Shown here: positions 88-33,644 of the stretch, piece by piece
Position numbering within the stretch: the stretch's first letter is position 1
Layout: each line of letters begins with the position of its first letter
Virus record (IMG/VR): IMGVR_UViG_3300031839_001335
Location: 1-33,646 of that record
DNA from: a virus
Taxonomy: Duplodnaviria > Caudoviricetes
DNA length: 33,646 bases
Strand: one strand, 5' to 3'
Notes under the pieces: model-generated
The model's input: only the letters and a program-made list of their open reading frames with translations
What the model was told of the DNA's origin: nothing
The model's database searches: none
Made by a program: the position numbers and the translations under genes

Positions 88-258
88 ATGAAAAGGTTTA
101 TTTTGACGAGGAAAATAACACATACAGAGAGAGCAGTGGTTGAGTCAGAATCATGGGATGACGCTAATGCTATGCTTAGAAGTGATGAAACTGACTTTGA
201 AATTCAGGCCGATGATGATATTGAAGATGAAACTATTGAATATATTGGCGACTGCTAA
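88..258 (+). CDS. Small acidic hypothetical protein (cassette-type ORF)
   Basis: ATG at 88 after GGAGAG. The stop TAA is the TAA of the core TGCTAAC (253-259). The ORF track extends it to a TTG at 4. Confidence 0.65.
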   Translation: MKRFILTRKITHTERAVVESESWDDANAMLRSDETDFEIQADDDIEDETIEYIGDC

Positions 259-271
259 CAGCGCAATAAGC
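253..271 (-). other. attI-like recombination site A
   Basis: Minus strand reads GCTTATT-GCGCT-GTTAGCA (7-nt box, 5-nt spacer, GTT core). It has no hairpin partner and matches sites at 2544-2562 and 25723-25741. Confidence 0.55.
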
Positions 272-321
272 GGAACACTATCCACGTAATTTAATATTAA
301 ACTTAATAAAAGGAAAAACAC

Positions 322-1052: not shown

Positions 1053-1222
1053 ACACAACAGCATCAACATTCTTTAGCCTCATGGCTGAGTTCGGAACAG
1101 CACAAATACCGCTTGAGAGCATGTGCGATAAGTATTTCAACCTAAAGTATGGGGCAGCCAAGAGAAAAGCGGCCAAACAATCATTGCCAGCTAATTTTGG
1201 ATGCCCTTATTGGAGCGCCTAA
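1049..1222 (+). CDS. PrtN-like (pyocin activator family) small DNA-binding protein, apparently C-terminally truncated or chimeric
   Basis: Not in the ORF track. Reads MNTTASTFFSLMAEFGTAQIPLESMCDKYFNLKYGAAKRKAAKQSLPANFGCPYWSA with a GGAGG RBS. LMAEFG..IPL...C.KYF resembles the PrtN N-terminus. The stop lies inside the attC core GCCTAAC. Confidence 0.65.
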   Translation: MNTTASTFFSLMAEFGTAQIPLESMCDKYFNLKYGAAKRKAAKQSLPANFGCPYWSA

Positions 1223-1279
1223 CGCCTTAGTTAAAAGGCGGCTGCTTTTTAGCCGTCATTTTTGAACGACTTGTTAGCT
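1217..1279 (-). other. attC site 1 (63 bp)
   Basis: Minus strand: AGCTAAC-AAGTC-GTTCAAAA...TTTTAAC-TAAGGC-GTTAGGC, with an internal CGGCT/AGCCG stem. Confidence 0.88.
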
Positions 1280-1296: not shown

Positions 1297-1548
1297 ATGA
1301 AAATACCAGAAGAATTAGAAGCAATTATTTACGACACAATGAAGCAGATGAGTGACCACAGTAAGGCTCTCTGCGATTTGGTGAACACGCACGGAACTGA
1401 CGAGCAAAAACAAGCATACAAAGAGGCTGTTTACGCTCCTGTGGTTCGGTTTTCTTTGATTCTCGGCAAAGACGCTATTGCACGCCATAAAATCAGGCAC
1501 GAAGAAATAAGCAAGCAGGTAAAAGCCTGCTTACATAGTGACAGCTAA
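1297..1548 (+). CDS. Gene-cassette ORF, hypothetical protein
   Basis: Bounded by GTTAGCTG (1273) and CAGCTAAC (ending 1549), which are perfect complements. GGAG RBS. The stop lies in the core. Confidence 0.8.
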   Translation: MKIPEELEAIIYDTMKQMSDHSKALCDLVNTHGTDEQKQAYKEAVYAPVVRFSLILGKDAIARHKIRHEEISKQVKACLHSDS

Positions 1549-1607
1549 CGTAATAACTAAGGGGTGCGTAGCGAAGCGGAGCATCCCGCTTGAGTGACTT
1601 GTTATGA
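1543..1607 (-). other. attC site 2 (65 bp)
   Basis: Minus strand: TCATAAC-AAGTC-ACTCAAGC-GGGATGC...GCACC-CCTTAGT-TATTAC-GTTAGCT. Confidence 0.9.
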
Positions 1608-1801
1608 GTAATTTTCAATTTAGCAACGTGGTTGTTGTAGATGATGACCAAATAGGCGTGATCGTCAAATCATGGGCAGACGGAAAGCATGATGTTTATG
1701 TGCGTAGTTACAACGGCGTGAGGGAGTACCCAGAAAGCGAGATTAAGCATTTTATTTACAGTAAAACCCTTGATGAAGATGAATACGCTTTTTACTCATA
1801 A
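1604..1801 (+). CDS. Gene-cassette ORF, small protein with an SH3/KOW-like beta pattern
   Basis: Bounded by GTTATGAG (1601) and CTCATAAC (ending 1802). The ATG and the TAA both lie inside the cores. Confidence 0.8.
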   Translation: MSNFQFSNVVVVDDDQIGVIVKSWADGKHDVYVRSYNGVREYPESEIKHFIYSKTLDEDEYAFYS

Positions 1802-1871
1802 CCCCGCTATTTTGCGGCGCACGTAGTGCGTCCGAGTGACCATCGGGAACGACAACAATGCTTTGTTATGT
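1796..1871 (-). other. attC site 3 (76 bp)
   Basis: Plus strand: TCATAAC-CCCGCT-ATTTTG...CAACAAT-GCTTT-GTTATGT, with an internal CGCAC/GTGCG stem. Confidence 0.8.
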
Positions 1872-2059: not shown

Positions 2060-2137
2060 ACATAACGCCAATGCTTAGGGGCGCGAGGTACGAGCGTCCC
2101 AGTGAGTAAAGCGAACGACTAGAGCTACTTGTTAGCG
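2060..2137 (-). other. attC site 4 (78 bp)
   Basis: Plus strand: ACATAAC-GCCAAT-GCTTAG...CTAGAGC-TACTT-GTTAGCG, with a GGGGCGC/GCGTCCC stem. Confidence 0.85.
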
Positions 2138-2149
2138 CGAGGAAAAGAG

Positions 2150-2335
2150 ATGGAAATATTATGTTGGATTTTAGCCCTTATTTGGGTTTCCGGCTGGATC
2201 AAAGAATTGGCTTGGGTTCATTCCACCATGGAAAGACACGGTATTGAATACCCGGATGACGCAGTGAAGTACGCGATGCCTGTGGTGCTGTTCCTTGCCT
2301 GGCCGTATTTCTACTTTTATGGAAAGACACGCTAA
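2150..2335 (+). CDS. Gene-cassette ORF, small two-TM membrane protein
   Basis: GAGG RBS and two hydrophobic segments. Bounded by GTTAGCG (2131) and CGCTAAC (ending 2336). Confidence 0.8.
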   Translation: MEILCWILALIWVSGWIKELAWVHSTMERHGIEYPDDAVKYAMPVVLFLAWPYFYFYGKTR

Positions 2336-2393
2336 CGCCATAGCTGTGCGGCGTGGAGCGCAGCGGAACGTCCGAACGAGCGACTTGTTAGGC
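2330..2393 (-). other. attC site 5 (64 bp)
   Basis: Plus strand: CGCTAAC-GCCATA-GCTGT...ACGAGC-GACTT-GTTAGGC. Confidence 0.85.
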
Positions 2394-2543: not shown

Positions 2544-2562
2544 GCCTAACAGCGTATTAACA
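2544..2562 (-). other. attI-like recombination site C
   Basis: Minus strand TGTTAAT-ACGCT-GTTAGGC. It terminates the array and has no hairpin partner. Confidence 0.5.
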
Positions 2563-2591
2563 GGCAAAAAATAACTATACAGTACGCATAT

Positions 2592-4759: not shown

Positions 4760-4849
4760 ATGGTTAAAAAAGCATACAAATACAGATTCTATCCAGACGA
4801 AGAACAAGCAGAATTGCTTGCCAAGACGTTTGGCTGTGTTCGATATGTT
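4760..4849 (+). pseudogene. tnpB: tnpB 5' fragment (HTH_OrfB_IS605-like)
   Basis: Reads MVKKAYKYRFYPDEEQAELLAKTFGCVRYV, then is interrupted. Confidence 0.88.
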
Positions 4850-5549
4850 AGAAACTGATTCCGGCATCTCTCAAAGCTCCTTCTAAATAATCGATCCTTT
4901 TCTGCATATCCGTGACTGATCTGCGGTTATCTGTTTGTTGTTTTTTGGTTGCCCACCTACAATTATCTGGGTCATAGTTGCCGTTATTATTTATACGATC
5001 TAGTGTGTGGCTTTTTGATGGCCTGCGTCCCATATCCTCTAAGAATTTCGCATAGTTATTTACCCAGCTTTTGCATACGCTAATGCCTCTTTCGCCATAG
5101 TATTTGTAGCTAGGACTTTTATTATTCAAGCATCGGTCTTTCATCGACTGCCAGCTATAGTATTCGGAGCTGTAAGAATCTCCGTGAACAACTTTTTTGC
5201 TAAATTCACACCCGGTATTGCATGAACACTTACAGCCATCTTTTAGGCTAATACCAAGTGCATAAACAATCTCCCCGCAATCACAAATAACTTCATATTT
5301 TCGATTAGACCTATGTCCATTTTTGATTACTCTGTAATTTCCTGTTGCGGTGAGTGATCCAAAACGATCACCTTTAATAACAATGCTTTTCTTTCTTAAT
5401 TCTCCCGTTATGGCCTGTTCAAGCGTGGCCAATTTGTTCATCCTGGAACCAATCGTTGTTAATGGAATAGCATATTTTTTAGATGCTTCTTGTCTTGTTA
5501 AATACTCACCAAATACGTTGTGCTTTTTGGCTCTCATGGCTTTACTCAC
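4848..5549 (-). CDS. Phage HNH-type (His-Me finger) endonuclease
   Basis: CDCG/SCN motifs plus HG...EYYSWQSMKDRC...YGERGISVC...LDRINNNGNYDPDNCRWAT. Confidence 0.88.
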   Translation of the reverse strand: MSKAMRAKKHNVFGEYLTRQEASKKYAIPLTTIGSRMNKLATLEQAITGELRKKSIVIKGDRFGSLTATGNYRVIKNGHRSNRKYEVICDCGEIVYALGISLKDGCKCSCNTGCEFSKKVVHGDSYSSEYYSWQSMKDRCLNNKSPSYKYYGERGISVCKSWVNNYAKFLEDMGRRPSKSHTLDRINNNGNYDPDNCRWATKKQQTDNRRSVTDMQKRIDYLEGALRDAGISF

Positions 5550-5556
5550 TCTATAT

Positions 5557-5928
5557 AACGATAACCAATTATATCACAAAACCCTTCGCATTAAAAACAT
5601 GATTAAAAATCCTAAATTAGCCAAGCATATCGCGGACGCGTCTTGGGGAGAACTGACTAGGCAAATAGAGTATAAGTCCAATTGGGGCGGTCGTACTTTT
5701 GTCGCTATTGACCAATGGTTCCCTTCGAGTAAACGCTGTGATTGCTGCGGATACATTGCGGATACGTTGCCGCTCGATGTACGTTCCTGGACTTGTCCAG
5801 AGTGCTCAACAACACTGGATCGAGACATCAATGCGGCCAACAATATTAAGCGGGCGGGCTGCTCGTTAATAGCCTTTGGAGAGAATGTAAGCGGCATTGG
5901 GTTAGTCCCTGTGTCCAGTTCTCGATGA
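5557..5928 (+). pseudogene. tnpB: tnpB 3' fragment (Zn ribbon plus RuvC-III)
   Basis: NDNQ...IKNMIKNPKLAKHIADASWGEL..QIEYK...PSSKRCDCCG...WTCPEC...DRDINAANNI. Confidence 0.9.
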
Positions 5929-5967
5929 ATTAGGAATCTCCTTCCTTTATGTAGGAGAGCAGTCAAT

Positions 5968-25650: not shown

Positions 25651-25722
25651 TTCTTCTTATCAGTCGGTCTTTGCCTACTTCCTTTTGACATTTTCTTATC
25701 CTTTTTTTTAGTTGTTAGTTCC

Positions 25723-25741
25723 GCTTAACGCACTGTTATAT
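25723..25741 (+). other. attI-like recombination site B
   Basis: GCTTAAC-GCACT-GTTATAT, preceded by GTTCC as in site A. Confidence 0.55.
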
Positions 25742-26797
25742 AATTTTCACAAGCCATTGGGAATAAATCTCGGTTGCTATTTGTGCAGTCATTACAGGGG
25801 GTACACTCATTCCAATTAAATAAACAGGTTTATTAGTGCAAAAATTATAATCCATTGGGTAACTTCCTGCCTTTTTACATTCATCATCAAATAAAGTTCT
25901 TTCAATTTCATAGTCATAAGGCAAGCCACTTGCTCTAATTGTTGGCACTACTTTGTCAGGGTGTAATTTAATTTCATTAAAGTAGCTTCCTTTAGGGTGC
26001 ACACTGCTAAAGCTATTTCCAGCCTCACAAAGCAACCAATATTCTCTAATCATTGGAGAAAGTCCAATTGCATTTTCATTGCCTTCTGTTTGTCTTATGT
26101 ATTTGTATGGTATTTCAGGTTCTTTAAAATCGATTGTAATTTCAGGAGCAACGGTAAATAAATCCATCTGTTTTAAAAACGGTCTCGCTAAATCTTTTCT
26201 AAATGCAATAAAAAAAACACGCTCTCTTTTTTGTGGCACTCCCATTTTTGAGCCATCAACTAAAAAATGTTGTACGTAATATCCTGCTAAATCAAATTCC
26301 TTGTAAATTTTTCTTACATACTCTTTTGCATCTCCCTGCAATAACCCTTTTACATTTTCAGCAACAACAACTTTAGGCTGCAATTCTTTTGCAAGGTCTA
26401 TAAAGTCAAAGAATAAATTATCTAAAACCTGTACAGCTTGTCCTTCTCTAAATTTCTTTTCTTTTCCCCAGTCCTTTTCTCTATTTCCAGCCGTTGAAAA
26501 ACTGCTACAAGGGGGCGAACCGTCTAAAATATCAAGGTTGTAAAGTTCTTCTGGTAAATCCTTTCTTAATTTAAAAGTTTGGATAGGCTCTAAATAAGCA
26601 TATTTAGGGTTGTGGTTAGCTTTGTATGCTTCCATCATTTTAGGATCAATCTCATTACACCCTAATACATCAAAGCCAGCTAATTTATACCCCATTGTCG
26701 AACCACCACCGCAAGCAAAACAACTAAAAACCGTTCCTTTATCTTTTGTGAAGTTTGCATCTTTTAAAGTCCATTCATATTGGTATCTATGTTCCAT
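25736..26797 (-). CDS. C5 DNA cytosine methyltransferase (gene cassette)
   Basis: Motifs I (FACGGG), IV (GSPPC), VI (ENVKG), VIII (PQKRERVF) and X (GMSVPP). No cognate endonuclease nearby. Confidence 0.95.
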   Translation of the reverse strand: MEHRYQYEWTLKDANFTKDKGTVFSCFACGGGSTMGYKLAGFDVLGCNEIDPKMMEAYKANHNPKYAYLEPIQTFKLRKDLPEELYNLDILDGSPPCSSFSTAGNREKDWGKEKKFREGQAVQVLDNLFFDFIDLAKELQPKVVVAENVKGLLQGDAKEYVRKIYKEFDLAGYYVQHFLVDGSKMGVPQKRERVFFIAFRKDLARPFLKQMDLFTVAPEITIDFKEPEIPYKYIRQTEGNENAIGLSPMIREYWLLCEAGNSFSSVHPKGSYFNEIKLHPDKVVPTIRASGLPYDYEIERTLFDDECKKAGSYPMDYNFCTNKPVYLIGMSVPPVMTAQIATEIYSQWLVKII

Positions 26798-26823
26798 AAA
26801 ATATTAATCTCCAATAAAAAATT

Positions 26824-26957
26824 ATATAACAAAAGCATCAAGCGGACTAAAACCGCTATCGGCTTTTTTAGTTTGTTGCATGTCTAAAGTTAATTGGTCT
26901 TTCAAAGTATCTCCTGTTATTTGTGGCGGTTTTAACCGCTTATGCTAAACGTTATTC
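26824..26957 (+). other. attC site 6 (134 bp, long type)
   Basis: ATATAAC-AAAAG-CATCAAGC-GGACTAAAACCGC...GCGGTTTTAACC-GCTTATG-CTAAAC-GTTATTC. Confidence 0.9.
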
Positions 26958-32977: not shown

Positions 32978-33220
32978 TTGAGCTACGCAAGCTGGCTGAC
33001 CCTGCCGCGAATAATGATGCACGAAATGCCGGACGAATGGCAGGACAAAATGGCTGCTTTGCTTGAGGAGTGGGACGAAACCTGGAACAGCGACGACATG
33101 CCAAGCCCAAGCGTAACAGCTAAACAAAACGGCAAATTTACACTGTGGCCGAGCTGGTTGTTGAACTACCGCCACCCAGACAGGCAGGAAATTGAGAAGC
33201 GCAGAATTGGCGGCGCATAA
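32978..33220 (+). CDS. Cassette-type ORF, probably 5'-truncated
   Basis: TTG start without an RBS. The frame extends upstream only to a TGA. The stop lies in the core GCATAAC. Confidence 0.6.
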   Translation: MSYASWLTLPRIMMHEMPDEWQDKMAALLEEWDETWNSDDMPSPSVTAKQNGKFTLWPSWLLNYRHPDRQEIEKRRIGGA

Positions 33221-33344
33221 CGCCAAGCGTAACCCGACGCCGGGCAGAAACACGGGAGACTTGAAGCAATGAAAGAGCAAAAAGACCACACAAAACCAGA
33301 AGCCGCAGAGGATCAGGCGGTCGGCGTTGACGCGCTTGTTAGTT
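33215..33344 (-). other. attC site 7 (130 bp, long type)
   Basis: Minus strand: AACTAAC-AAGCG-CGTCAACG-CCGACCGCC...GGCGTCG-GGTTACG-CTTGGC-GTTATGC. Confidence 0.85.
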
Positions 33345-33589
33345 TGCGGATCACGGACGATACCAAACTGGGGCGCAAAGCCATCATGTTTGGCGATGGC
33401 GAAGACGGCTATTTCATGCAACAACACCAGATTTTTGCGGACGACCACGACACTGGAGTAACCATGCTTGTCACCGGCAATCTTGGCAAGGACAACACCA
33501 CTCGGACTTTTGAATTCGGGGGGCAGGATTTCGAGAAAATCCAGGATGCCTTTCGAGCTGCTGGGCACGATGTTGTTTCGTCAAACTAA
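33269..33589 (+). CDS. Gene-cassette ORF whose first ~25 codons lie inside attC7
   Basis: GGGAG RBS and ATG within the attC loop. Cores GTTAGTTTG (33338) and CAAACTAAC (ending 33590) are complementary. Confidence 0.78.
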   Translation: MKEQKDHTKPEAAEDQAVGVDALVSLRITDDTKLGRKAIMFGDGEDGYFMQQHQIFADDHDTGVTMLVTGNLGKDNTTRTFEFGGQDFEKIQDAFRAAGHDVVSSN

Positions 33590-33644
33590 CGCCCACATAT
33601 AAGCGGTGGCGATTTTAGCCATCCGATTGATTTGCTTGTTAGCT
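33584..33644 (-). other. attC site 8 (61 bp)
   Basis: Plus strand: AACTAAC...CGGTGGC-GATTTTA-GCCATCCG-ATTGATT-TGCTT-GTTAGCT. Confidence 0.78.

Follow-up and report, generated by a model that had tools for sequence, protein, structure and literature searches.

The window analysed here is an entire viral contig, linear, 33,646 bases in length and 81% complete, which codes for terminase, portal, major head, RecT-like, SSB and NinG proteins along with a C5 DNA methylase. Using a scan for TAAC...GTTA pairs with complementary arms we recovered eight attC-like sites, the numbering of which agrees with that in a preliminary description of this DNA. The short ones are attC1 (1217..1279, +; recognized by the arm-pair scan and fold geometry), attC2 (1543..1607, +), attC3 (1796..1871, +), attC4 (2060..2137, +), attC5 (2330..2393, +) and attC8 (33584..33644, +), and the long ones are attC6 (26824..26957, -) and attC7 (33215..33344, +). 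All eight display conserved AAC and GTT cores and pairing L boxes; their unpaired central spacers measure 6 and 5 nt, except in attC8, where they measure 7 (left) and 5 nt, and their lengths of 61-134 bp fall inside the attC range of 57-141 bp. The five sites between 1217 and 2393 and the two between 33215 and 33644 have the makeup of CALINs, i.e. at least two attC sites within about 3 kb and no integrase, while attC6 is isolated from the other sites and is accompanied by a half-site alone. The layout of a complete integron, with intI beside the array, was not seen in the contig: a search across it for a tyrosine recombinase/integrase (PF00589) gave no match, which at 81% completeness does not imply absence from the phage. 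The canonical cassette layout (gene on the top strand, attC 3' of it) was likewise not seen, with the attC body lying 5' and the gene on the bottom strand.

We also observed array-terminal half-sites, comprising TAAC, a 5-nt spacer and an L-like box with no right arm, beyond which core genes (SSB, NinG) follow. One of these closes the methylase cassette (25718..25738, -), a second, nearly identical to it, lies ahead of the SSB gene (256..276, +), and a further one is found at 2546-2566 (+). They resemble attI-type double-stranded insertion sites, and half-sites of this kind are also present in L688-L691. The same 21-letter half-site word is found in five viral contigs, and in four of those (two of them identical) an upstream frame of 80-200 codons ends in the half-site TAA. 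Contigs of three runs diverge just before position 256. Elsewhere in the window (4848-5966), an HNH-like frame (4848-5549, -) overlaps a second frame (5350-5928, +), the C-terminal half of which resembles the zinc-ribbon end of an IS605-type TnpB.

Orientation of the attC-like sites

In integron attC sites, as described in PMC5027507, extra-helical bases lie on the arm opposite the AAC of the recombinogenic bottom strand: a G close to L'' and, six pairs beyond it, a T. When the sites of the window are read on the gene-sense strand, each of the eight has an extra base on the arm opposite AAC (a G in seven and a C in attC3), and in attC6 an extra T (26846) and G (26839) are six pairs apart. This placement indicates that the gene-sense strand corresponds to the bottom strand, and the predicted crossover is at the left TAA^C. 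We infer that in this phage the gene-sense strand is the recombinogenic strand and that each site hence lies 5' of its gene, as the preliminary description had proposed. Pieces of contigs from other runs agree with this position of the attC, in that they begin or end at left TAAC cores (256, about 1550, 2060 and 2332); one such piece (1804-2068) is a complete hairpin-plus-gene unit from TAAC to TAAC, and another has a different right arm ahead of the gene at 2400. At six of the eight sites, attC4 and attC6 being the exceptions, the left-core TAA ends a frame that runs in from upstream over 59-118 codons, including one with 87 open codons at attC7.

By a crude longest-frame measure, genomic sites (bacterial and archaeal) had upstream flanking frames on the top strand in 37 instances and on the bottom strand in eight, and viral sites had them on the bottom strand in 18 and on the top strand in nine. 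Three Bacteroidetes-type cassettes (L005, L006 and L027) have their sequence in common between the left TAAC of the site ahead of the methylase match and the TAAC that follows, and diverge outside these limits, a pattern that again places an attC-like site 5' of its gene. Among the published phage sites tested with IntI1, the two of PH101 (L200:1890-2560) have their bottom strand as the gene-sense strand, and those of TJE1 (L695:240-1520) are canonically oriented. The inverted layout is thus not universal in phages, since TJE1 and some long viral sites are canonical.

Putative translation starts within the loops of the long sites

The loop of attC6 contains a Shine-Dalgarno-like (SD) AGGAG (26911..26915, -) 5 nt ahead of a TTG (26905), which opens a 27-codon frame (26822..26905, -) coding for MKDQLTLDMQQTKKADSGFSPLDAFVI. 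This frame stops two codons past the right core (TAA at 26824-26822), 9 nt before the GGAG (26812-26809) and 24 nt before the ATG (26797) of the C5 cytosine DNA methylase; the methylase thus has its own initiation signals (26797..26812, -; spacer of 11 nt) and runs for 353 residues (PF00145; 25736..26797, -) to a stop in the TAA of the terminal half-site. In attC7 an SD-like GGGAG (33254..33258, +) lies 10 nt ahead of an ATG (33269), from which a 106-residue frame, MKEQKDHTKPEAAEDQAVGVDALVS... (33269..33589, +), continues to a stop in the TAA of attC8; it consists of a 23-residue leader encoded by attC7 and an 83-residue cargo of no known family. Both arrangements are those given in the preliminary description, and the (L/V)D.(L/F)V ending of the leaders is, as claimed there, fixed by the L and R boxes. 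The shared MK(D/E)Q opening, which had also been remarked upon, is real in the two window peptides and does not extend further: we examined 31 fused leaders of viral sites elsewhere, and not one begins in this way. Relatives of attC6 open with MKDQ, MQDQ, MEDQ or MNDQ.

We then examined how frequently such starts occur in homologous sites, using a pattern that fixes the boxes and leaves the loop free, so that a D/E-x-L/F-V ending is built in and does not constitute independent evidence. The scan for long viral sites was complete (90 stretches), that for long sites in bacterial and archaeal genomes covered 11 of 64 parts and that for short viral sites 47 of 64 parts. Filtering by stem score, with the cutoff set at the 95th percentile of a null of mismatched arms, dropped about half of the pattern matches and reduced the distinct ones from 81 to 36 (long viral), 131 to 62 (genomic) and 99 to 42 (short viral), of which 34, 53 and 38, respectively, had flanks. 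A start was scored when an SD (AGGA, GGAG or GAGG) plus ATG in the loop was open through the core and for at least 40 codons beyond. Such fused starts are present in 20 of the 34 long viral sites as against a mean of 0.89 (maximum 4) in 200 shuffles of the loops, and in 4/53 long genomic sites, 1/38 short viral sites and 1/23 weak-stem viral matches; on the opposite strand of the long viral sites SD plus ATG through the core was found in 2/34. Clustering at 75% identity left 16 of 30 viral versus 2 of 35 genomic clusters (Fisher p 2e-5), and one of these two genomic clusters, L300, has the phage layout. Both frame 0 and frame 1 are in use, and the 14 long viral sites that have no fused SD plus ATG include some that are canonically oriented. 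Across independent sites the loop starts are far beyond chance; chance does matter if the two loops of the window are taken by themselves, a 4-letter SD and start through the core arising in 5.8% and 11.7% of 5000 shuffles. An enrichment of ribosome-binding sites and starts in homologous loops, the lack of which the preliminary description had counted among the signs against its proposal, is present in the long viral sites.

The same description had drawn attention to attC2, in which an ATG (1604) directly follows the core GTT, with no clear SD, and opens a 65-codon frame ending in the TAA of attC3 (1604..1801, +). This ATG is indeed in the core, and it appears to have no special meaning: GTTATG is found in 15/53 genomic, 7/34 long viral and 6/38 short viral sites, as the core consensus favours it.

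Leaders and their cargos

A metagenome scan with both arms of attC6 yielded 185 matches, mostly to other sites, from which we retained six loci representing five distinct relatives, 90-95% identical to attC6. All five preserve the AGGAG, the 5-nt spacing and the TTG; an in-frame internal ATG of the window is replaced by ACG in two of them, and TTG is accordingly the conserved start. Their likeness to attC6 ends at TAAC on the left and GTTA on the right, and four of the five are fused in frame to four different methyltransferase cargos: two N6/N4 methyltransferases that are 35% identical to one another, one phrog_799 methyltransferase and one whose full protein, P0014, matches PF01555. Two of these loci (L562 and L615) have no ATG between the core and the first methyltransferase-type motif, in a check of ATG codons alone. 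The four complete cargos terminate in the TAAC of another site. In one relative of attC6 (L549:658-744, -) the leader is shifted by a single base relative to the methyltransferase frame of 210 codons that directly follows the core; a sequencing error, a broken gene or re-initiation may account for this.

When proteins of 99-315 residues were searched with the N-terminal 40 residues of L615, 11 with an attC6-type leader were recovered, three of which are the metagenome loci already found and eight of which come from the protein search alone. Ten of the 11 match DNA methyltransferase families, P0017 being the exception, which suggests that DNA methyltransferases are the usual partners of the leader family to which attC6 belongs. 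Of the eight codons that vary in the leader, seven are nonsynonymous, so that strong selection is not evident over most of the peptide. The 27-residue peptide of the window is better read as a leader deprived of its in-frame cargo than as a purpose-built peptide, and it is likely an orphaned leader ahead of a methylase with its own start.

This methylase is 94% identical to that of locus L002, which is preceded by a different, short site, and the sequence after GTTATA is similar in the two. Joints that skip the methylase cassette were noted in X5, X6 and X12 (25738-26939 and 25740-26951), their sides extending for only 29-30 letters at 85% likeness; they do not locate the crossover, and we do not count them as proof. 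The attC6 frame has the layout of an ORF-11-type upstream ORF, with an SD and start of its own and a stop near the start of the next gene. Folding of the RNA pairs the methylase GGAG with the stop region of the leader, with an unpaired probability of about 0.05, and the isolated hairpin predicted over this SD amounts to only -1.8 kcal/mol. At most, the peptide could possibly serve as a translational-coupling uORF for the methylase, a role that such modelling founds weakly. A T run follows attC6.

Turning to attC7, we found four full-length homologs of the 106-residue protein (54-75% identical) which have leaders of like length and share only the box-encoded (V)D(A/P)(L/I)(V/I)SL of the attC7 leader. 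Conversely, a site 75% identical to attC7 (L393 = L694) bears an unrelated cargo. Further pairs with the same leader and unrelated cargos are L370 and L382, and L366 and L110, and the same cargo family is found behind unrelated leaders in L339, L418 and L551, and also in L379 and L632. This reuse of one leader on unrelated cargos, along with the enrichment of loop SDs and starts in long viral sites, is what would be expected if, as the preliminary description holds, the attC carries portable expression signals. A search of viral contigs for DNA relatives of the attC7 cargo confirmed none, and the exact right arm of attC7 had two matches there, one in a known long site and one without a matching left arm. 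In P0006, a protein of 172 residues and apparently a chimera, the N-terminal 30 residues of the attC7 cargo family are flanked by unrelated sequence on either side.

Of the 120 top-ranked homologs of the L551 methyltransferase, the majority start 5-13 residues ahead of the first motif; some 11 display attC-type leaders, judged by the appearance of the peptide alone. At the C5-methylase loci an attC-like site is found upstream in 8 of 76, as against 0 of 76 at a control position; three of these sites, of 124-127 bp, have an in-frame loop ATG, and at the five shorter ones the gene starts after the core.

Certain leaders also contain recurrent words. The beta-clamp-binding consensus is QL[S/D]LF or QLxLx[L/F], and QL(T/N)L is present in all nine of the attC6-leader methyltransferases that were scanned; three unrelated methyltransferase leaders hold QATLF, QQTLF or QNSLF, and three others have no such word. 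We take these words to be akin to the clamp-binding consensus, and presumably the same applies to an internal QMDLF of the window methylase (26797-25736, -; loci L001-L080), a QxxLF-type word being found in 55 of 76 homologs. In a weak test of whether leaderless methyltransferases have such a motif at their C-terminus in its place, a clamp-like pattern was observed in 7 of about 102 short-start homologs, and we claim no complementarity between the two positions. Four frame-1 leaders, belonging to three clusters (L336:1893-2159, L366:1128-1343, L110:964-1191 and L421:70-363), combine a basic start, a hydrophobic right arm and a cysteine just after the core, and are presumably lipoprotein signal peptides with a lipobox cysteine; L366 and L110 share 80% of the site. 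Hence the leaders appear to be specialised, as a methyltransferase leader and as lipoprotein signal peptides, which we offer as a lead and not as a result, and a fixed genomic slot or a weak TTG that suits methyltransferases would explain the association of leader and methyltransferase equally well. It is conceivable, if rather doubtful, that inverted attC sites constitute a library of swappable N-terminal modules, in which each long loop gives the start and a function-specific tag (for methyltransferases QLxL, clamp-binding-like; when the second frame is read, a lipoprotein signal peptide), any cargo being attached in frame through exchange by the integrase at the right core. If true, such a system would build new protein fusions besides moving genes.

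Probable origin of the fusions and relation to known systems

Starting from the established geometry and frames of the sites, the enrichment over controls and the presence of the same leader on unrelated cargos, we consider it probable that the accessory genes of this phage lie behind reversed attC hairpins and that the SD and start of a long loop are translated through the right arm into the cargo as a fused leader of 15-30 residues. The two long hairpins of the window would then likely supply the first 23-25 amino acids of any gene joined behind them. Whole cassettes, i.e. hairpin plus gene from TAAC to TAAC, may move by bottom-strand recombination at the left core, probably through the integron integrase of the host, while leader and cargo might be re-paired more rarely at the right core, in what would be the equivalent of top-strand recombination. 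As the core fixes the phase, re-paired partners would be in frame. The attC7 protein would be such a fusion, and the C5 methylase, with its own SD and ATG, likely came to stand behind the attC6 leader through a junction at the right core; the 27-residue orphan that resulted may help re-initiation at the methylase start.

Several alternatives have to be set against this. The loop starts might be real and the sites no longer integrase substrates, the shuffling being due to the RecT-type annealing protein of the phage or to other short-homology recombination at the cores. Such a process would fit with the RecT-like protein encoded in a contig where PF00589 was not found, and with exchanges at both cores, whereas integrases prefer the bottom-strand AAC (PMC5027507). 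Against it, the extra-helical bases and spacers still occupy the positions standard for attC sites, the boundaries lie on cores of 4-7 bp, which are short for homology-driven exchange, and similar phage sites, including the inverted ones of PH101, recombine with IntI1 (PMC9892861). We hence regard it as improbable. That the loop starts are unused, chance features of purine-rich bottom strands has still less in its favour: attC bottom strands are purine-rich (PMC5027507), the attC6 start is a TTG, and the two window loops alone give such starts in 6% and 12% of shuffles, but neither composition-preserving shuffles nor equally skewed bacterial sites have such starts at the viral frequency, and those cargos in which no ATG precedes the first motif rely on the start within the loop. 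We give this explanation hardly any credence.

The preliminary description had further suggested that the attC hairpin attenuates transcription in the RNA and that translation of the loop frame melts it. The attC6 RNA is predicted to fold into a long hairpin, and small terminator-like stems are present inside attC6, attC7 and attC8, with the T run after attC6. However, the count of terminator-like sites (10) is not above the level of shuffles (7.7 +/- 3.0), and folding of the attC7 RNA does not predict the attC hairpin. Moreover, according to reviews and deletion tests, attC hairpins act on translation, mostly weakly, and do not bring transcription to an end (PMC8876359, PMC11511950); as the RNA examined in those tests was that of the top strand in class 1 integrons, they are no direct test of the gene-sense strand here. 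This part of the earlier proposal is not borne out, and attenuation relieved by translation strikes us as very unlikely. Short ORFs in attC, on the other hand, can help downstream translation (Jacquier 2009, as reviewed in PMC8876359, PMC11511950).

The reading in which reversed hairpins supply fused leaders can be compared with known systems. The sites share with classical integron attC sites, as set out in PMC5027507, the AAC/GTT cores, L boxes, unpaired spacers of 5-6 nt, extra-helical G and T six pairs apart and a length of 61-134 bp. Unlike the classical cassettes of that account, the gene is on the bottom strand with the attC body ahead of it, the left core provides the stop codon of the previous gene, and the loop and right arm are coding. 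Clusters of attC sites without an integrase, often with DNA methyltransferase cargo as here, were described in phage genomes by Qi et al. 2023 (PMC9892861); their sites have the same box, spacer and extra-base layout, are active with IntI1, and in PH101 are also inverted. In contrast to the long inverted sites studied here, those tested by Qi et al. are short and those of TJE1 canonical, and the main text of PMC9892861 has none of the terms 'start codon', 'antisense', 'opposite' or 'translation' and describes neither loop starts nor the shuffling of leaders and cargos. The ORF-11 of attI1 and short attC ORFs (Hanau-Bercot 2002, Jacquier 2009, via PMC8876359, PMC11511950) have frames with their own SD that cross the core and are proposed to hand over ribosomes, and the 27-residue frame of attC6, if used, would work in the manner of ORF-11. 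As presented in these reviews they lie on the top strand as part of the platform or of the upstream cassette, whereas in the present sites the start moves together with the gene that it serves and usually forms, by in-frame fusion, the N-terminus of the protein. Full-text literature searches, with subscription journals mostly outside their scope, turned up no account of phage attC sites that are inverted and carry starts. Both the attC clusters of phages and the short ORFs within attC sites of bacteria are published; what the present analysis adds is that leaders are shuffled among cargos and that they are apparently specialised.

In integron biology the manner in which attC sites acquire their genes has stayed an open question. 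In the present data, near-identical copies of one attC are linked, in frame and at the right core, to methyltransferase genes of several unrelated kinds, and members of a single gene family lie behind several unrelated attC leaders; with sharing seen both ways the building of cassettes becomes directly testable. The leaders also explain a common odd N-terminal extension (...V(D/E)xLV...) of phage proteins, and gene callers will miss or mis-start such genes. The sites further suggest that phages, beyond carrying captured bacterial cassettes, use integron-type sites for self-expressing cassettes of their own.
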